DNA of 50,856 nucleotides from Candidatus Thorarchaeota archaeon (lineage in GTDB: Archaea; Asgardarchaeota; Thorarchaeia; Thorarchaeales; Thorarchaeaceae): the NCBI GenBank assembly GCA_004524435.1, contig SDNO01000001.1:1-50856 (forward strand), in the 5' to 3' direction. The position numbers and the translations under genes were made by a program. Positions 24,883-31,410 of the stretch are shown here, piece after piece (position 1 is the first letter of the stretch; every line of letters starts with the position of its first letter). A model generated the notes under the pieces. It saw only the letters and a list, made by a program, of their open reading frames with translations. It had not been told where the DNA came from and searched no databases.

Positions 24883-25251
24883 CTAATCGGCTATCATGTT
24901 GACCAGCGCGCGTTTTGTGGCCATCCTGATCAAACCCATAGACTCTCGCGCATTCTTTCCAGCTATTGCTGCGAGCACCAGCTTGACGTCACCGAGGATA
25001 ATGATGAGTCCTTTGTCAGCCGTTATTGTGATTTCATTCAGGCCACCCTTCTCCAGTCCTGTGACCATCTGTGCCGAATTCGAGGCTATCTTGACAGCTA
25101 GATTTGCAACTTCGGAGTGCTTGATATCGCCAGTAATCGTGTGACCAAAAACAACATTCCCCTCGGCATCGCATACGATCATGCCCTGGATGTCAGCATT
25201 TGCAGCCATTGTGTCAGCAACTATGGTCTTAATCTTTGATTCATCAACCAT
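24883..25251 (-). CDS. Roadblock/LC7 (MglB-like) domain protein
   Basis: 122 aa with the typical pattern ...IQGMIVCDAEGNVVFGH...LNEITITADKGLIIILGD... Transcribed divergently from the Sec23/24-like gene. Confidence 0.85.
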   Translation of the reverse strand: MVDESKIKTIVADTMAANADIQGMIVCDAEGNVVFGHTITGDIKHSEVANLAVKIASNSAQMVTGLEKGGLNEITITADKGLIIILGDVKLVLAAIAGKNARESMGLIRMATKRALVNMIAD

Positions 25252-25460
25252 CTCTTTTCTTCTCCCGAGGCGTCCTGTCTGAATCTATGTTTTTCTTCTT
25301 AACTGACTCGTTTATATCTTCTGTTCGTGTCAGGTACTCAGTTTTAGCTCGAGCTTTCGGTACTAGTCCCTATCCAAGTGTACCGAGACTTGGACGGAAT
25401 AGACTATATAAGCGAAAGTCCTTGAATGCTTAGAAACGGATTCTTGGAGATGGAGAAGAC

Positions 25461-27098
25461 ATGCCTATGCTACGCACTACCTCGGACACCTTTCCGGCTG
25501 AAACGAAGATGATGAGTGATATCCCGTACGTACTCCGCGTGGAGTTTGGAGCACTCGAGAAAGAGGAGAAGAAGATTATCGGGAAGCCTATAGCATGTCA
25601 CAAGTGCAACGGATTCCTACTCAGTATTGATCAGATAGTTGAAGATGATAAGGTTGGCAAACACTTCATCTGCCCCTTCTGTGGAACACTCAACGTTATC
25701 GAGGGCGAGATTGTCACTGCAGGCGACGACACTGATTTCGTCATCGAACCCCCTAAGGATACTACGGAATCAGATACAGAATCCCTGGAGCAAATGGGCG
25801 GTACTCTCCTTGCCCTCATTGATGTGTCAGGGTCTATGGCTGGTGCCAATCTTGCTGCCGTGAAGAGAAGCCTGAGGACATCAGTTGAGAGTCTTGCTGC
25901 AAACGCGCCAAATACCCTGTTTGGTCTGATTGAATTTGAGAGCAGTGTCTTATTCAGAGATCTTCAGTCTGGCAATGAGATAATCCTTCCTCGGAATGCC
26001 TATGCCAGTTATGAGGCCATACAGAAACAAACTCAGCAACTCATGGACCACATCAAATTCCTGAGTGTTGGTGAGAATGCGGATAGAATCAAGAAACATC
26101 TCAGTGCGTTATGTGACAAAGGCGGAACAGCTCTTGGCCCGGCAGTTGCAATGGGCTATGCAATTGCCAAACACAGAGATATCGGGCGTGTTGTATTACT
26201 GACCGACGGTCTAGCGAATGAGGGTATCGGCGCACTGGAAGGCTTTCAGGTAACCCCAGCAACTAGTTTCTACGAAGAGATGGGTGTCGAATTCATGAAA
26301 AATGGCACTGCGGTGGATGTTGTAGGCATTGCCTCTGGAGCAGGAATGGAACTCAAAACGTTAGGTCTTCTTCCCGAGGCCACGGGTGGCCAAATGTACT
26401 ATGTGACACCCAACGAGCTTGACCAGAGCATAGCAGAGTTGGCAGGCAGTTCACTCCTTGGTCGGGATGTAGAAGTACGCTTGATCACTCCTCCGGGCAT
26501 CAAAGTAAAAGACGCATCAGGGGTTTCACGAGGGGTCATTGATGATCTGAAGGCCAAGGCTGAGAGTAAGATCGGAGTGGTGGGCGAGAATCATGAGCTC
26601 TATTTCGAGATTGAATCCGAGAGTCGAGTCGAGTCAGATACTGTGCCCATCCAGGTCCAGGTTACCTACACGGATTCTGAGGGTGCTCGAAGGGTCAGAG
26701 CAGTCACGACCAAGCTCAAAGTCGCGAAGGATGATGAGGAGATAATGAAGACACTTGATCCTACTCTTGGTGCCACATTCGTCACGCAGAAGGCCGGAGA
26801 GGAGTCCTTCAGAGGGGATCGAGAGGAGGGTAAGAAACGCATCTCCTCCTTCCGGGCAGCGATGAAGAAACAGGCAGAATCCGCTCCGGAGAACGTTCAG
26901 AACAGAATAGACGAAATCGACGATGTTCTGGCGGGTGAAGAGGAGGAGATGGAGCGTCTGGACAATATGATGAAAGCCGCACCTGCATCTGCTCCATCTG
27001 CGGCAGCAGATGAGGCGTATACATCGGGTCTCCAACAGATGCGCCGCAGCTCGAAGCAGATGTTTAGGAAGAAGAAGGATGAGGATGACGAAGAATAG
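25461..27098 (+). CDS. Sec23/Sec24-like protein: Zn finger, vWA (trunk) domain, beta-sandwich and a charged helical tail
   Basis: Zn finger CHKC-x21-CPFC (aa 46-74). vWA with MIDAS-like LALIDVSGSMAG and LLTDGLANEG. LGLLPEATGGQMYYV. Beta-sandwich motif VPIQVQVTYTDSEGARRVRAVTTKLKV. TATATAA about 50 nt upstream. Confidence 0.8.
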   Translation: MPMLRTTSDTFPAETKMMSDIPYVLRVEFGALEKEEKKIIGKPIACHKCNGFLLSIDQIVEDDKVGKHFICPFCGTLNVIEGEIVTAGDDTDFVIEPPKDTTESDTESLEQMGGTLLALIDVSGSMAGANLAAVKRSLRTSVESLAANAPNTLFGLIEFESSVLFRDLQSGNEIILPRNAYASYEAIQKQTQQLMDHIKFLSVGENADRIKKHLSALCDKGGTALGPAVAMGYAIAKHRDIGRVVLLTDGLANEGIGALEGFQVTPATSFYEEMGVEFMKNGTAVDVVGIASGAGMELKTLGLLPEATGGQMYYVTPNELDQSIAELAGSSLLGRDVEVRLITPPGIKVKDASGVSRGVIDDLKAKAESKIGVVGENHELYFEIESESRVESDTVPIQVQVTYTDSEGARRVRAVTTKLKVAKDDEEIMKTLDPTLGATFVTQKAGEESFRGDREEGKKRISSFRAAMKKQAESAPENVQNRIDEIDDVLAGEEEEMERLDNMMKAAPASAPSAAADEAYTSGLQQMRRSSKQMFRKKKDEDDEE

Positions 27099-27255
27099 CG
27101 CCAAATCGGGGGGGAAAACACCTCCGGTTCATCCCTTGCTGCTCCAGGAGGCAGTCTCCTCAGAATGCGCAAAACAGCTATGTAGTGGGGAACACACTGC
27201 CACAACTCTCAAATACCCAAGAGCGGCCTAGAAACTGCTGACGCACTATCTTACA

Positions 27256-27561
27256 GTGGGGATTTCACGGTTGATTAGCCAGGAGAGACTTGAAGCGATT
27301 CTTGCCGACCTTACAGCCCAAGAGGGCGTTCGAGGAGTTGTAGTCACAAACATGGAAGGGCTGCCACTTAGCAGCGATCTTCCCCCTGAGACCACTGAAA
27401 CCGTCGCTGCAATACTGACCTCACTAGTGGGCAAGGCTCTTGACGCAGTTCGAGAGCTTCAAGAGGGGTCTTTATCATTTCTGACTCTTGATACAACCAA
27501 GGGACAGATAAACATCGCACCGGATGTTAAAGAGGACCTCATATTAGTAGTCCTCAAATAG
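27256..27561 (+). CDS. Roadblock/LC7 domain protein
   Basis: LEAILADLTAQEGVRGVVVTNMEGLPLSS...LSFLTLDTTKGQINIAP. The start is uncertain (GTG at 27256 or TTG at 27274). Confidence 0.8.
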   Translation: MGISRLISQERLEAILADLTAQEGVRGVVVTNMEGLPLSSDLPPETTETVAAILTSLVGKALDAVRELQEGSLSFLTLDTTKGQINIAPDVKEDLILVVLK

Positions 27562-27586
27562 GAATGTGTCTAAGAGGTACATCACC

Positions 27587-28054
27587 ATGAGCGATCCGAA
27601 AGCCTTTGACAAGATACTCACAGATATTATTCGGCAGGACAAGGGAATCAAGAAAGTCATACTTGTTGATAAGACTGGCCTGACAATAGCCAATGTGAGC
27701 AAATTGAGTTACTACCCTGTCGATGTAGACAGTATCGGTGCAATTGCAAGTGCCGTGTTCTGCGCAAGTGAAGAACAGGGTAAGAACTTGCAGATTGGAG
27801 AGCTCGAGATTGTGACCTCGGAGTTCTCGGAGGGCAAGATATTTGCATCAGCCTGTGGCAAGGGAGTTCTCTGTGTGGTGTCCGAGGCAGAGGTGAACAT
27901 CGGTCTGATTCGTCTCGTGATGAAGAAACAGGGTATGCAATTGGCCGATGAGTTGGATAAGTTCCTAGCGGTGGAACCAATGGCACCCAGCAAAGACCGC
28001 GAACTTGACGAGGAAGATCTCAAATCCGCCTTGGCTGAACTGGAGAGAGTCTAG
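27587..28054 (+). CDS. Roadblock/LC7 domain protein with an acidic C-terminal extension
   Basis: GIKKVILVDKTGLTIANVS...LEIVTSEFSEGKIFASACGKGVLCVV. The ATG at 27587 lies 7 nt after GAGGT. Confidence 0.82.
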   Translation: MSDPKAFDKILTDIIRQDKGIKKVILVDKTGLTIANVSKLSYYPVDVDSIGAIASAVFCASEEQGKNLQIGELEIVTSEFSEGKIFASACGKGVLCVVSEAEVNIGLIRLVMKKQGMQLADELDKFLAVEPMAPSKDRELDEEDLKSALAELERV

Positions 28055-28296
28055 TTACCTAGAGAGTAGGTCTGTGCATCAGTTTCATCTGACTAAGCCT
28101 GGATTCCAAATTGTCATGGACTGTCTTATCCACATTAGGAATTTCACGGTGGGTCAGACGACGGACAAAGGCTTTTATGAGACTAAACTTTTATCACCTT
28201 CAACCTCCCGAGGCTAGGCCGGAGGCCCGAGGGATATTCTGCTCTCTGTGGGTCTCATCAAACCATGGGCAAGCAGTGAATCTATGAGGTGATCCA

Positions 28297-28860
28297 GTGA
28301 GAAAGGACGACAAGGGGCGAATACATCTAAAGCTGGTATTCTATGGTCCAAGCCTAGGTGGGAAGACAACTGCCCTTCGCTGGCTTTATGGCAAAGTTGA
28401 GGGTCTACAGAAAGGGGAGTTCACTGCAATTGAAGATGAGACAAACCGAACTCTGTTTTTCGACTATGTACCAATGAGTGCCGGAGGAAGAGTTCTGTTT
28501 GATGTCTTCACCGTCGCCGGGCAAAAGCGGCATAGACATCAGCGAAAGGTCGTATTGCAGGGCACCGACGGTATTCTGTTTGTCGCAGATTCTTCACCTG
28601 ACCAACGTGATGAGAATACGGAGAGCTTCGAAGAGCTAAAACTGTTTCTTGGAGATGCTCTGGGCAGAGAGATCCCCATTGTCGTAATGCTGAACAAACG
28701 CGATCTGCCCAATCGAATGTCCCGTGATGAAATGCTTGACCTCCTTGGTCTGGGCGGCAATGTACCCATCTATGAAACCATTGCTATTCAAGGCGTAGGA
28801 GTTAAGAGAGCATTTCAGGCTATAGCAAGAGAGGTAATCCTCAAAAGGATGTACAAGTAG
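28297..28860 (+). CDS. MglA-family small Ras-like GTPase
   Basis: G1 GPSLGGKT, switch I TNRTLFFDYVPMS, MglA-type G3 FTVAGQ (Thr replaces the usual Asp), GTDGILFVADS, G4 NKRDLPN. The GTG start lies 1 nt after a 10-nt Shine-Dalgarno GAGGTGATCC. Confidence 0.92.
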   Translation: MRKDDKGRIHLKLVFYGPSLGGKTTALRWLYGKVEGLQKGEFTAIEDETNRTLFFDYVPMSAGGRVLFDVFTVAGQKRHRHQRKVVLQGTDGILFVADSSPDQRDENTESFEELKLFLGDALGREIPIVVMLNKRDLPNRMSRDEMLDLLGLGGNVPIYETIAIQGVGVKRAFQAIAREVILKRMYK

Positions 28861-28876
28861 AGCCAGGTGAAATGAT

Positions 28877-29248
28877 ATGAGCGAATCCCGTGGAGAAACC
28901 CTTGAAGGTGTTCTAAACGAGCTACAGGGCAGTATCCCTGAGATTGAGGCTTGTGCCATTGTCAGTGTAGAGGGATTACCAATCGTTTCGGCTCTTCCAG
29001 CTGATGTGGATGAGGCAAAACTGGCCGCAATTACGGCTGCAATGTTGACCCTCGGCGAGAAGGCAGCCGTTGAACTCGGAAAAGGTGAACTTGAGCAGGT
29101 CAATGTGAAAGGCAAAGAGGGGTGGGTTCTTGTTGTACAGGCCGGCATGAATGCCTGCCTCACGGTCTCAACGACCGGCACGGCGAAACTCGGTCTCGTA
29201 TTTCTTGATATGAAGCGGGCAGCCGAGAAAGTCGCTACGATGATTTAG
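28877..29248 (+). CDS. Roadblock/LC7 (MglB-like) domain protein
   Basis: LNELQGSIPEIEACAIVSVEGLPIVSA...LEQVNVKGKEGWVLVVQAG. It starts 16 nt after the GTPase stop, with an AGGTGA Shine-Dalgarno. Confidence 0.87.
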   Translation: MSESRGETLEGVLNELQGSIPEIEACAIVSVEGLPIVSALPADVDEAKLAAITAAMLTLGEKAAVELGKGELEQVNVKGKEGWVLVVQAGMNACLTVSTTGTAKLGLVFLDMKRAAEKVATMI

Positions 29249-29324: not shown

Positions 29325-30092
29325 GTGAATATCACAGGTCCTATGTATCGCCTCTATGAGTACGTACTGTACAGACAGCTCAGCCGAGACAAGGCGCCAA
29401 AACACGTGGGAGTCATTCTAGACGGAAATAGGCGATACGCTCGAGAGCATGGATACGATGTCCCCTGGTTTGGACATCGCAAAGGTGCTCAGAAGGTCAT
29501 GGAGGTCCTCCGAATCTTATGGGAGGCCGGCGTGGAGATTTGCACTCTCTATGCATTCTCGGTTGAGAACTTTCAGAGAAACGAGAATGAGGTCTCCGAA
29601 ATAATGGAGATTGCTAAGGAGAAATTCGGAGAGGTAGTGGATAATCCCGACATCCATCGTCACGAAGTGCGAATAAAGGCAATCGGGCGTGTTGATCTTT
29701 TGCCGCCTGATGTTCAGGAAGCCATAGCAGCAGCTGAGGCAGAAACAGCTCGATATGAGAAACATATTCTAAATGTGGCAATTGGGTATTCAGGCCGAGC
29801 AGAGGTGGTGGACGCAGTCCAAGCAATCGGAATGAAGATCCAAGAGGGAGATCTTGCTCCCTCTGAAGTTGATGAGAGTATTATCGAACAACATCTCTAT
29901 ACATATGGCATTCCAGACCCTGATCTGATAATCCGGACTTCTGGCGAGGAGCGATTGTCCGGATTCTTGCTCTGGCAGTCTGCCTATTCTGAGCTATATT
30001 TTGCTCAGATTTATTGGCCCGCAGTCAGACGCATTGACATCTGGCGTGCCCTACGGTCATATGAACGCAGATCTAGAAGATATGGTACCTAG
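29325..30092 (+). CDS. uppS: cis-prenyltransferase (undecaprenyl/dolichyl-type diphosphate synthase)
   Basis: HVGVILDGNRRYA and RTSGEERLSGFLLWQSAYSELYF. Confidence 0.93.
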   Translation: MNITGPMYRLYEYVLYRQLSRDKAPKHVGVILDGNRRYAREHGYDVPWFGHRKGAQKVMEVLRILWEAGVEICTLYAFSVENFQRNENEVSEIMEIAKEKFGEVVDNPDIHRHEVRIKAIGRVDLLPPDVQEAIAAAEAETARYEKHILNVAIGYSGRAEVVDAVQAIGMKIQEGDLAPSEVDESIIEQHLYTYGIPDPDLIIRTSGEERLSGFLLWQSAYSELYFAQIYWPAVRRIDIWRALRSYERRSRRYGT

Positions 30093-30174: not shown

Positions 30175-31410
30175 ATGATGCTTCCCGTACTCCAAGGAGA
30201 ACATGTGGAATTGACGCGAAACCCACTTGAAACATACGAAGGGCTGCTCAGCAGTAATCTAACGGATGAGATTCAATCGTACATCGTGAAAGTCATCAGT
30301 AGATACTCTGATGCCGATTTTGCTGATGAAGAGTTCTCCACCCACTTAGGTCGTTTCGTTGAGATTGTATGTCGCCTCATCTCACATCTGAATCGCCGAA
30401 AAGAGCCCACTCTCACCGATCTTATGCAGGCAATGGATGTTCTGGACCACTTCGCCTCCACTACCCGTTGGTGGAACATGGCTCGTTCCTCGCCTGGGAT
30501 AATCCTGCGGCCGGCAACCCGGGACCCCCGTGAATTCATACGATCTATTCCCTCTGTACGACTAGGCAGTGAAACCATCAGCAGGATAAAGGGGGCATCC
30601 GATCGGCTGTCATCTTTTCTGGATGAACACGAAATCGCCAGCTCAAGCACTCGGGAGCATCTACAAAGATGCATGATGTCCACATGGACCCTTCTCAGCG
30701 CATTCTGTTGCAAGAGTCAAGGACGTAACGTATCCTCTGAATCAGATTTCGAGACCGCATACGACATTCTCAGAATCCTCCTTTTCCATACTCCTAGTGT
30801 AGATTTTGCTGCACTGAGTGCAATCAGGATTATAGCTACCAGTTCCCGCCTTCCACAGATTGCTGATGTCAATTTTTCGCCAGGTTTCGAGAAGAAACTT
30901 GAGTCTTCCACAGCGGCAAGACTGGAAACTACGCATGGCGAATACCTCGGAGATGCAGGCGATACAGTCCCGAGAGCATCTCGTGCTATTCTCACAAACT
31001 CAATCAGGCTGCTTGCGCAGATTGAAGCTGCAAACCTTGGCATTGACAGAATCGAAGAGAGTGACTACGACACGGTGACCATGGGCGCCCTCAGTCTCTT
31101 GGAGCGGGTGCGTATCGACCCAGAGGTCTTCCTCGATGAGAATGCTGTGGTTGGCCTATTCAGAAGACTCAGGCCAGCAGAAGAGGGAATCGGTGAAGGA
31201 CTAGCACTTCTGACACGAAAGCTTGAGAGCCTCATTGTTGACTCTACAGGCAATCGCAATTTCTTGCTTCAACATGCAAGGGTGGTCCCTCGGATGGTAG
31301 CCCTTCTCCTGTTAGTCTCGAGCGGTACCAAGTCCCCTGAGGATGACGGGTTAAGAGACATCGACTTGAAGAGAGGTCTGATTCTGCTGGAGAAGCTAAT
31401 CAGTGACTAG
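30175..31410 (+). CDS. Hypothetical all-helical protein built from four AAA+-lid-like repeats
   Basis: 411-aa ORF with a roughly 100-aa internal periodicity. See finding. Confidence 0.7.
   Translation: MMLPVLQGEHVELTRNPLETYEGLLSSNLTDEIQSYIVKVISRYSDADFADEEFSTHLGRFVEIVCRLISHLNRRKEPTLTDLMQAMDVLDHFASTTRWWNMARSSPGIILRPATRDPREFIRSIPSVRLGSETISRIKGASDRLSSFLDEHEIASSSTREHLQRCMMSTWTLLSAFCCKSQGRNVSSESDFETAYDILRILLFHTPSVDFAALSAIRIIATSSRLPQIADVNFSPGFEKKLESSTAARLETTHGEYLGDAGDTVPRASRAILTNSIRLLAQIEAANLGIDRIEESDYDTVTMGALSLLERVRIDPEVFLDENAVVGLFRRLRPAEEGIGEGLALLTRKLESLIVDSTGNRNFLLQHARVVPRMVALLLLVSSGTKSPEDDGLRDIDLKRGLILLEKLISD

Follow-up and report, generated by a model that had tools for sequence, protein, structure and literature searches.

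Several described systems resemble parts of the locus presented here, namely the MglA-MglB pair of bacteria such as Myxococcus xanthus and Thermus thermophilus, the Ragulator (LAMTOR1-5)/Rag system, the Sec23/Sec24-Sar1 set of coat protein complex II (COPII), the eukaryotic cpRAS-VWA proteins and the ArnA/ArnB pair of Sulfolobus. In prokaryotes, genes for MglA are normally coupled to genes for one or two MglB homologues (390 of 449), where coupling is defined as the presence of an MglB/Roadblock gene within four genes (PMC4316618), and an AlphaFold3 model of a thorarchaeal complex between an MglB dimer and a GTPase has been published (PMC13408092). Sec23-like proteins of Asgard archaea have also been described, with a beta-barrel, a Zn finger, a trunk and a helical domain and no gelsolin domain; three of these proteins bound an Asgard Arf weakly and irrespective of nucleotide state, and the residues that contact Sar1 are absent from them (PMC11914678). 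In this study, we analysed a locus in which genes of both kinds lie side by side, situated in a 50,856-nt stretch of a Candidatus Thorarchaeota archaeon genome (contig SDNO01000001.1; hereafter the window). It comprises a Sec23/24-like gene (Sec23L), a gene for an MglA-family GTPase and four genes for Roadblock/LC7 proteins (Robl1 to Robl4), which an earlier note, made from the letters of the window alone, had proposed to form one trafficking or polarity module. The comparisons described below make it likely that the locus represents an ancient Asgard switch module of MglA and four Roadblock proteins, into which Sec23L was inserted in Thorarchaeota only. The part of the proposal that concerns the Roadblock and MglA genes thus stands, as these constitute a conserved module, while the inclusion of Sec23L is not supported, its linkage to the cluster being absent outside Thorarchaeota.

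The coupling of MglA to MglB is already known, as are the Sec23-like, Roadblock and MglA proteins of Asgard archaea. The Sec23-like proteins were reportedly first noted in Thorarchaeota in 2017. The study dedicated to them (PMC11914678; Nat Commun 2025) reports no gene-neighbourhood analysis and does not mention their position inside an MglA/Roadblock cluster in Thorarchaeota, their intact MIDAS (metal ion-dependent adhesion site) or their closer relation to cpRas1-type proteins. A preprint by Liu et al., in which the gene surroundings of all Asgard eukaryotic signature proteins were inspected, places most of them outside conserved gene neighbourhoods, and the exceptions that it names are the ESCRT neighbourhood and an operon of LAMTOR1-like, Rab-like and DENN genes. 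A literature search yielded no description of the thorarchaeal adjacency of Sec23L, Roadblock and MglA genes or of the five-gene cluster, although an earlier mention in the 2017 Nature paper on Asgard archaea, in the final version of Liu et al. (2021) or in supplements is possible.

The MglA-family GTPase and its four Roadblock neighbours

All six open reading frames (ORFs), taken from the ORF list of the window, were recovered exactly where the earlier note had placed them, and the results of Pfam, PDB, profile and fold searches agreed on the families to which it had assigned them. Robl1 is transcribed divergently from Sec23L across a spacer of 209 bp, and the succeeding spacers measure 157 bp (Sec23L-Robl2), 4 bp (Robl2-Robl3), 242 bp (Robl3-MglA) and 16 nt (MglA-Robl4), the last of these as previously claimed. 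The grouping of four Roadblock genes and MglA in 4.4 kb far exceeds chance expectation, given that other Asgard classes present these five genes again in an identical arrangement.

By its sequence, the GTPase belongs unambiguously to the MglA family: a phmmer search against the PDB returned MglA at 5e-38 and Arf at 9e-12. The protein carries a P-loop (GPSLGGKT, residues 17-24), a switch-I Arg within ETNRTLFFD (residues 48-56), which aligns with ETDRTLFFD of M. xanthus, a G3 motif in which Thr takes the place of Asp (TVAGQ, residues 72-76; TxxGQ) and the NKxD motif in the form NKRD (residues 133-136). It shares these features with the MglA of bacterial MglA-MglB systems, as it does the location of an MglB-like gene (Robl3) directly upstream, in the order mglB then mglA, while the presence of extra Roadblock genes recalls Myxococcus with its MglC. 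The coupling of MglA to Robl3 upstream and to Robl4 downstream was kept in all lineages examined. Conversely, the locus differs from the bacterial systems in its archaeal host, in possessing four distinct Roadblock genes rather than one or two, in that Robl3 and MglA are pulled apart in Thorarchaeota and provided with separate promoter-like elements, and in lacking genes for RomR/RomX, Frz and known effectors. Additionally, thorarchaeal genomes encode a second MglA-like paralogue elsewhere, which is 268-300 aa in length, bears an extension and is approximately 52% identical (P0412-P0450).

All four small proteins could be assigned a Robl_LC7 domain. Robl2 (58.4 bits), Robl3 (37.7 bits) and Robl4 (62.6 bits) exceeded the Pfam gathering score, while Robl1 remained under it (19.2 bits against 23) and was assigned through a profile of 11 of its orthologs. 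This profile matched the solved Roadblock/LC7 protein 9jq8 (E 1.6e-9), followed by further Roadblock, dynein-LC7 and MglB chains, and an hhalign comparison of Robl1 with Robl4 gave an E-value of 1.8e-4 over 110 columns. The four paralogues of the window share only 21-30% pairwise identity. According to their alignment, Robl2 (101 aa) lacks the C-terminal helix; this protein passes the threshold of Pfam LAMTOR5 (29.7 bits against 27), and Robl3 passes that of MAPKK1_Int/LAMTOR3 (30.7 bits against 25). The top PDB matches of Robl3 are to M. xanthus MglB over its full length (E 2e-5, versus 4e-3 for LAMTOR2/LAMTOR3), and it also matches NCBIfam MglB (2e-4), while Robl4 is best matched by 7f8m, a Robl_LC7 domain protein (5.5e-23). 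Robl3 is consequently a candidate GTPase-activating protein (GAP) or regulator of MglA, a role suggested by its best match, MglB, and by the order of the genes.

By homology with bacterial MglA/MglB, MglA would cycle between its GTP- and GDP-bound states using its own switch-I Arg and the Gln of G3, and a Roadblock dimer containing Robl3 would bind MglA-GTP and stimulate hydrolysis. Robl3 may do so as a homodimer or as a heterodimer with the LAMTOR5-like Robl2, its tightly coupled gene neighbour. Robl4 and Robl1 would probably constitute a second Roadblock dimer, which could modulate, anchor or localise the switch in the manner of Myxococcus MglC or of LAMTOR4/5 in Ragulator. The arrangement Robl1(-), Robl2-Robl3, MglA-Robl4 would thus represent an ancient module of one GTPase with four dedicated, anciently diverged Roadblock proteins, through which some cellular machinery would most likely be controlled in space, in polarity or at a membrane site. 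Sec23L has a promoter-like element of its own, and its orthologs elsewhere presumably work with no Roadblock or MglA neighbours.

The presence of several distinct Roadblock genes next to that of a small GTPase is also reminiscent of Ragulator/Rag, and the four proteins might accordingly be viewed as a tetramer of two heterodimers that scaffolds the GTPase on a membrane, being a direct prokaryotic antecedent of Ragulator-Rag and not an MglB-type GAP. Such a view is in keeping with the one-to-one retention of four anciently diverged paralogues across Asgard classes, with the LAMTOR5 and LAMTOR3 matches of Robl2 and Robl3, with the shortness of Robl2, which is like that of LAMTOR4 and LAMTOR5, and with the pairing of the genes (Robl2-Robl3, and MglA-Robl4 with Robl1), which suggests heterodimers. 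However, the 187-aa GTPase is a single-domain MglA rather than a Rag protein bearing a Roadblock domain at its C-terminus, the genes of the locus gave no LAMTOR1-like match, Robl3 is closer to MglB than to LAMTOR2/LAMTOR3, and the Heimdall and Hod lineages keep only two of the four Roadblock genes. A Ragulator-like tetramer is, in our estimation, improbable.

Gene order within and outside Thorarchaeota

Orthologs of MglA, at 55-67% identity, were identified in the Jord, Frey, Heimdall and Hod lineages as well as in further ones. It should be borne in mind that most of the genomes are metagenome-assembled genomes (MAGs) and few are chromosomes, that taxon labels are given as deposited and that genes in the fetched loci were called by a simple longest-ORF rule. 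A Frey chromosome presents, at locus L088, the order ScpA-SMC(-), Robl(-), Robl, Robl, MglA, Robl ... UPPS, where UPPS denotes a cis-prenyltransferase gene, and on a contig from Guaymas (L095) the order is AIRS ... ScpB-ScpA-SMC(-), Robl(-), Robl, Robl, MglA, Robl, UPPS ... ACD-beta, the spacers there measuring 7-180 bp. Similarly, L093 holds the same five cluster genes and UPPS, with Robl4 inverted. The Jord lineage (Jordarchaeales) possesses Robl2-Robl3-MglA-Robl4, lacking Robl1 only, while the Heimdall and Hod lineages show Robl3-MglA-x-Robl4. Robl3 lies directly upstream of MglA in all of the non-thorarchaeal lineages, at a distance of approximately 40-95 bp, which is the classical mglB-mglA arrangement. 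The correspondence of the paralogues is apparent from bit scores at L088 (Frey) and L093, where the positional ortholog scores far above the next paralogue (Robl1, 52 vs 29; Robl2, 80 vs 20; Robl3, 222 vs 18; Robl4, 158 vs 28). No trace of Sec23L was detected by tblastn at E<=1 in the loci L088, L090, L092, L093 or L094, and in Frey the Sec23L and MglA genes are separated by 859,296 bp on one chromosome.

The reverse comparison was made by scanning genomes of GTDB species for Sec23L loci with an alignment of eight sequences (A2), since the 30-sequence alignment (A1) proved too diverse. Twenty archaeal loci outside Thorarchaeota were retrieved, encoding Sec23L at 26-40% identity and belonging by label to Hermod, Jord, Frey, Heimdall, Odin and others. 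Within 10 kb on either side of these 20 loci, no Roadblock genes were found by phmmer with the proteins of the window or with a hidden Markov model (HMM) built from 108 thorarchaeal Roadblock proteins, nor did phmmer and custom HMMs reveal an MglA gene nearby. At least three local contexts, unrelated to one another, can be told apart among these loci, with neighbours such as an iron-containing alcohol dehydrogenase (Fe-ADH), PHO4, PhoU, an acyl-CoA dehydrogenase, an amino-acid permease, Nre, a hexapeptide transferase and an enoyl-CoA hydratase. Small neighbours of Roadblock size were considered and rejected, as they proved to be Cupin, DUF1844 or unknown proteins instead. The neighbourhood as a whole, which the earlier note had suggested comparing across related Asgard genomes, is therefore not conserved beyond Thorarchaeota: the Roadblock/MglA cluster occurs with no Sec23L in Frey, L093, L095, Jord and Heimdall/Hod, and the 20 Sec23L loci occur with no Roadblock gene. 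Absence of the gene order from related genomes is the first of the outcomes that the note itself had named as speaking against a functional module.

Some further features of these loci were recorded. The sole GTPase near a non-thorarchaeal Sec23L is of the Ras/Rab type (Pfam Ras 1.7e-54). Two Heimdall-like loci (L041:5330-6040 and L044:5440-6024) encode it on the strand opposite to Sec23L and at a distance of 4 kb, with three genes (Usp, permease, unannotated) in between; it was not seen in the other two loci of this group. Sec23L of the Hermod type repeatedly adjoins a gene for an orphan protein of about 1220 aa, usually in divergent orientation (L086:4126-7785(-), L087:1-3318, L035:2135-9765, L034:2560-6216 and L049:1-1005), with three genes intervening in L034. 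This protein has no Pfam or PDB sequence match and is a candidate for a real partner of Sec23L. Furthermore, a prepilin-peptidase-like gene (Arc_PepC_II / Peptidase_A24) is positioned directly upstream of Robl3-MglA in Heimdall and Hodarchaeales (L092:4750-5318 and L094:4467-5282), which may point to a connection with pili or archaella like that of bacterial MglA. Certain deposited labels (L082, WJMJ01000059.1; L044, L047 and L049) appear inconsistent with content: a 'Lokiarchaeota' contig holds a complete block of the thorarchaeal type, MAG contigs labelled 'Bathyarchaeia' and 'Undinarchaeota' bear Asgard-type Sec23L, and an 'Odinarchaeota' contig groups with Hermod-type loci.

Within Thorarchaeota, 35 loci were compared in which Sec23L is 54-80% identical. 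Gene order was constant (S8e-AIRS-ScpB-ScpA-SMC, Robl1, Sec23L, Robl2, Robl3, MglA, Robl4, UPPS, an unknown gene, ACD-beta, ACD-alpha, radical SAM), with Sec23L between Robl1 and Robl2 in every locus sampled. The Robl2-Robl3 junction was never interrupted (0 of 32 loci), Sec23L-Robl2 was interrupted once in 33 loci, Robl1-Sec23L in three of 32 and MglA-Robl4 in three of 28, one of these by an inversion; a Zn-ribbon protein of about 150 aa is encoded between MglA and Robl4 in L008 and L015. In contrast, 10 of 30 loci hold unrelated genes at the Robl3-MglA junction, which are specific to the genome concerned and amount to 0.7-3.9 kb. This gap, which corresponds to positions 28055-28296 of the window, is a recurrent insertion site (L003, L005, L010, L013, L014, L015, L023, L026, L040 and L048), the inserted genes varying by genome and including those for a 600-aa membrane protein, a TetR-like protein and a 529-aa secreted protein, among others. 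MglA and Robl3 are the most conserved genes of the block, with median identities to the window of 98% and 93%, followed by Robl4 (85%), Robl2 (80%), Sec23L (68%) and Robl1 (63%). The block of about 17 kb from SMC to ACD (acetyl-CoA synthetase) is collinear throughout, including functionally unrelated flanking genes, and the retention of the Sec23L linkage in Thorarchaeota is therefore ordinary block synteny and not specific evidence for an association.

Since the cluster occurs elsewhere with no Sec23L and Sec23L occurs elsewhere with no Roadblock gene, a single insertion of Sec23L into the divergent spacer between Robl1 and Robl2, in the thorarchaeal stem lineage, is the most parsimonious account, rather than repeated loss in other lineages. 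It follows that the position of Sec23L does not by itself demonstrate a proto-COPII trafficking machine. The six genes might nevertheless form a thorarchaeal module for trafficking or membrane remodelling, in which MglA-GTP recruits Sec23L to the membrane as its effector, as a prokaryotic counterpart of the Sar1-Sec23/24 pre-budding complex, with the Roadblock proteins as a platform for GAPs and guanine nucleotide exchange factors. Gene order lends this some support, as Sec23L is located inside the cluster in every thorarchaeal genome sampled, on the same strand as Robl2-Robl3-MglA-Robl4, and is contiguous with Robl2 in 32 of 33 loci. Against it, the linkage was found in no other lineage when tested in both directions, with the two Frey loci 0.86 Mb apart, and in Thorarchaeota conservation extends equally to the whole block of about 17 kb, with SMC, UPPS and ACD. 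Moreover, separate conserved promoter-like elements and the insertion hotspot divide the locus, and no shared promoter motif was found. The properties of Sec23L itself bear on the same proposal, and are described below.

The fold and relatives of Sec23L

The Sec23/24-like identity assigned in the earlier note was borne out. Sec23L exceeded the gathering scores of Pfam Sec23_trunk (47.6 bits against 27; E 2e-12) and Sec23_BS (34.8 bits against 33.5), while zf-Sec23_Sec24 reached 18.4 bits, under the gathering score of 25. An AlphaFold2 (AF2) model based on 34 sequences attained a predicted local distance difference test score (pLDDT) of 84.6 and a predicted TM-score (pTM) of 0.86, and in a Foldseek search of the PDB with this model ranks 1-46 were occupied exclusively by Sec23/Sec24 (E 1.7e-29 to 5e-19, TMq 0.63-0.73, about 590-650 columns). 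Generic von Willebrand factor A (vWA) structures appeared from rank 47 (4fx5, bacterial), and ArnB appeared at ranks 48-49; a generic vWA or TerY identity, which the note had named as a second outcome that would refute its proposal, was thus ruled out, as Sec23/24 outrank every other fold. Strands at residues 4-40 and 332-422 of the model form a beta-sandwich/barrel that is split by the trunk, as in Sec23/24, and residues 424-545 are modelled as helical with high pLDDT, although Pfam Sec23_helical was not matched. The gelsolin domain is absent, in that nothing follows the helical region, with which the protein terminates at residue 545, and Pfam Gelsolin gave no match. In 30 diverse members of the family, the four Zn-ribbon cysteines (C46, C49, C71 and C74) do not vary, and they are present in approximately 123 of 128 family representatives, and the Zn-ribbon and MIDAS residues are kept in approximately 125 of 128. 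The residues of human Sec24A that align with the MIDAS positions are D, S, N, S and T.

Despite this structural resemblance, sequence similarity to COPII is marginal, as a sequence search of the PDB matched only Sec24 chains, and these weakly (24 bits to Sec24A). An exhaustive search of 1.84 billion representatives retrieved about 45 relatives of archaeal size, followed by many proteins of 600-940 aa at 95-130 bits, the named ones among which are eukaryotic (choanoflagellates, Platysulcus, Chrysoparadoxa). Among the 150 best family representatives, 14 are annotated as eukaryotic 'circularly permutated Ras protein 1' (cpRas1; e.g. P0163, P0167, P0168, P0172 and P0181), which joins a Ras-type GTPase and a full-length homologue of the Sec23L module in one protein; over query residues ~15-516 their scores are 120-130 bits, and they possess the same Zn ribbon and MIDAS. 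This cpRAS-VWA architecture was published in 2008 (Elias & Novotny, PMC2430557). Together with the stand-alone ZnF-VWA proteins described there, the cpRAS-VWA (CPRas1) proteins are the closest non-archaeal relatives of Sec23L, having the same CCCC Zn ribbon and DxSxS..T..D MIDAS, but Sec23L starts at the beta-strand/Zn-ribbon region and has no GTPase domain, whereas the eukaryotic proteins have N-terminal extensions, which in the 14 cpRas1 representatives take the form of a circularly permuted Ras domain. Judged by sequence, Sec23L is much closer to this cpRAS-VWA/ZnF-VWA family than to COPII Sec23/24. Stand-alone ZnF-vWA proteins of protists and some animals share the intact MIDAS and Zn ribbon with the Asgard family, and in Acanthoeca spectabilis (P0193 / P0323) an actin domain (Pfam Actin 1e-70) is joined to the ZnF-vWA module, as a real fusion or an artefact of the gene model.

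Sec23L thus belongs to the same family, with the same architecture, as the published Asgard Sec23-like proteins, and shares fold and domain order with COPII Sec23/Sec24, likewise with a small GTPase gene nearby. Nearly the full length of the protein adopts the Sec23/24 fold, which favours the thorarchaeal six-gene module, as does the 'Rosetta-stone' argument offered by the cpRas1 fusions among the best representatives. On the other hand, the cpRas1 GTPase is of the Ras type and not MglA, and the locus differs from COPII in several respects: the MIDAS of Sec23L is intact while that of Sec24A is degenerate, Sec23L is encoded by a single gene where COPII has a Sec23/Sec24 pair, the GTPase belongs to MglA and not to Sar1/Arf, and there are no Sec13/31-like genes. 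The reported weak and nucleotide-insensitive binding of Arf by Asgard Sec23-like proteins, and their lack of Sar1-contact residues (PMC11914678), also tell against the six-gene module, which we consider unlikely. The analogy drawn in the earlier note with Sec23 as the GAP for Sar1 has to be abandoned; Sec23L cannot be a Sec23-type GAP, because the gelsolin domain and its Arg finger are missing and because MglA supplies an Arg finger of its own and has an MglB-like neighbour. If coupled to MglA at all, Sec23L would act as an effector, which seems doubtful.

Sec23L is most likely best read as a metal (MIDAS)-dependent protein-protein adaptor. One form that this could take is a regulatory scaffold of the ArnB type, with switchable interactions that are possibly controlled by phosphorylation, which would operate independently of the MglA module and would not be a membrane coat. 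ArnB (8s05), for which the term 'archaeal ortholog of the Sec23/24 core motif' is used, has in common with Sec23L a Zn finger packed on a beta-sandwich, and with bacterial 4fx5 it provides the first non-COPII matches in Foldseek. The MIDAS (DxSxS..T..D) is intact across the Sec23L family, as in ArnB (PMC12852372), and not in human Sec24A, and the orthologs in other Asgard archaea lie among unrelated genes. Furthermore, a C-terminal motif, MRRSSKxLF (residues 527-535; window 27039-27065), is conserved in thorarchaeal and Hermod members, with S530/S531 at >=90% and F535 invariant; it resembles a basophilic kinase site (RRxS), and the tail beyond it is first basic and then acidic. As ArnB is controlled by C-terminal phosphorylation, a parallel may be drawn, albeit a speculative one. 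These points must be set against the structural comparison, in which Sec23/Sec24 (E 1e-29, TMq ~0.7, ~600 columns) greatly outperform ArnB (6.5e-16, TMq 0.48), and against the arrangement of the Zn finger, which in Sec23L is present in cis, as in Sec23/24, while in the Sulfolobus system it is contributed in trans by the FHA protein ArnA, with control by the kinase ArnC. Neither the locus nor the remainder of the window contains an FHA, kinase or phosphatase domain. Phosphorylation is purely speculative. We regard an ArnB-type scaffold as a tentative possibility that falls well short of being likely.

Returning to the reading of the locus as an ancient MglA/four-Roadblock module with a thorarchaeal insertion of Sec23L, a number of points weigh against it. 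The dimer pairings and the GAP role of Robl3 are suggested by homology and gene spacing, and the direction of the rearrangement by parsimony over a handful of lineages rather than by a rooted species tree. In addition, Sec23L lies inside the Roadblock cluster and not beside it, the contiguity with Robl2 is broken in just one thorarchaeal locus, and eukaryotic members of its family are fused to a small GTPase, so a functional recruitment of Sec23L in Thorarchaeota is possible. In its fullest form, such recruitment would mean that thorarchaeal Sec23L was captured by the MglA/four-Roadblock switch and now serves as a membrane effector of MglA-GTP on a Ragulator-like Roadblock platform, a scenario that we hold to be quite improbable.

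Transcription units, flanking genes and implications

The features of the locus are compiled in Table 1. The intergenic sequences were read directly, and a sigma-70 promoter/terminator scan was set aside as unsuited to an archaeon.

Table 1. Genes and promoter-like elements of the locus (positions in the window) and regions of the Sec23L protein (residues).
Feature	Position	Strand	Basis or remark
Robl1, divergent Roadblock/LC7 paralogue	24883..25251	-	122 aa; Pfam (sub-threshold) and ortholog profile
Divergent Robl1/Sec23L intergenic region	25252..25460	.	sequence read
Second TATA-like element in the Robl1/Sec23L spacer	25310-25320		putative promoter element
TATA-like element ACTATATAAG before Sec23L	25403-25412	+	putative promoter element
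Sec23/24-like gene (Sec23L)	25461..27098	+	545 aa; Pfam, AF2 model, Foldseek
TGCGCAAA upstream of Robl2	27166-27173	+	conserved in five diverged thorarchaeal loci; putative promoter element
TATA-like box upstream of Robl2	within 27200-27218	+	conserved amid diverged spacer in five thorarchaeal loci; putative promoter element
Robl2, short Roadblock paralogue	27256..27561	+	101 aa; Pfam
Robl3, MglB-like Roadblock protein with C-terminal extension	27566..28054	+	162 aa; Pfam, PDB match
TATA-like AGGCTTTTATGAGAC (AGGCTTTTAT.AGA) upstream of MglA	28169-28183	+	invariant in five diverged thorarchaeal loci; putative promoter element
MglA-family small GTPase	28297..28860	+	187 aa; phmmer, motifs
Robl4, Roadblock paralogue	28877..29248	+	123 aa; Pfam
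Cis-prenyltransferase (UPPS)	29325..30092	+	Pfam, TIGR00055
411-aa protein with no family match	30175-31410		after UPPS
Sec23L N-terminal beta strands	residues 1-42		AF2 model
Sec23L Zn ribbon	residues 43-80		C46, C49, C71, C74
Sec23L disordered acidic linker	residues ~97-114
Sec23L vWA/trunk	residues 115-330		complete MIDAS: D121, S123, S125, T223, D249
Sec23L beta-sandwich	residues 331-423
Sec23L helical domain	residues 424-545

The locus does not appear to be a single tight six-gene operon: Robl1 is encoded on the opposite strand, the spacers of 157 and 242 bp contain conserved TATA-like elements, and the Robl3-MglA junction is interrupted in 10 of 30 thorarchaeal loci. The conserved TATA-like elements and the insertion hotspot suggest that, besides Robl1 on the minus strand, at least three plus-strand units exist (Sec23L; Robl2-Robl3; MglA-Robl4), and Robl4 is probably co-transcribed with MglA. 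The element preceding MglA lies approximately 115 nt before the start codon and is invariant even in those thorarchaeal loci that carry insertions upstream of it; its position implies a long 5' leader (28169-28296), which is partly conserved and includes an ACCTCCC block. The divergent spacer between Robl1 and Sec23L, in contrast, is weakly conserved among thorarchaeal genomes. No regulatory motif common to the promoters of the cluster was found, the single occurrence of TGCGCAAA in the window equals chance expectation, and a comparison of promoters across Asgard classes was uninformative owing to differing base composition.

Upstream of the cluster, the SMC gene occupies the minus strand. Downstream, the cis-prenyltransferase that had been noted earlier was verified as UPPS (Pfam Prenyltransf 5e-76, TIGR00055 1e-76). 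This gene follows the cluster in Thorarchaeota as well as in L093 (7224-8081) and L095 (8127-8822), and is two genes away in Frey (L088:9187-10005). Because UPPS also accompanies the cluster in non-thorarchaeal lineages, its linkage is older than that of Sec23L; it is regarded here as a neighbour of the module, and the association could reflect plain retained synteny or a real tie to lipid-carrier synthesis. The 411-aa protein encoded after UPPS occurs in Thorarchaeota only (median identity 48%), gave zero matches in Pfam, NCBIfam and PADLOC and is predicted to be all-helical, although its single-sequence AF2 model is unreliable (pLDDT 43.7), so that the label of helical-repeat protein given in the earlier note is provisional. 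A reading of the locus as a defence system was ruled out, since PADLOC returned zero matches for seven of its proteins. The remaining genes of the window are core housekeeping genes (NadC, NFACT, fumarase, SdhA/B-like, KaiC-like, deoxyhypusine synthase, DRG, SRP54 and A-ATPase A/B). The closest homologues also place the organism in Thorarchaeota.

Should Sec23L indeed be a working partner of MglA and the Roadblock proteins, coat recruitment driven by a GTPase, a central question of eukaryogenesis, would have a tractable prokaryotic model in Thorarchaeota, and a capture of Sec23L by the switch would represent a prokaryotic pairing of a GTPase with an inner-coat-like protein, parallel to the cpRas1 fusion and to Sar1-Sec23/24. 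The evidence lowers this expectation, because the adjacency is a lineage-specific insertion and a conserved property of neither component. The linked genes of Thorarchaeota and the unlinked genes of Frey nonetheless constitute a natural comparison by which to decide whether linkage reflects interaction. Furthermore, the closeness of Sec23L to the cpRAS-VWA/ZnF-VWA family, together with its intact MIDAS, bears on the use of Asgard 'Sec23-like' proteins in scenarios of eukaryogenesis. The five-gene cluster of MglA and four Roadblock proteins, for its part, represents a better-defined biochemical target than the scattered Roadblock and GTPase genes of Asgard archaea.

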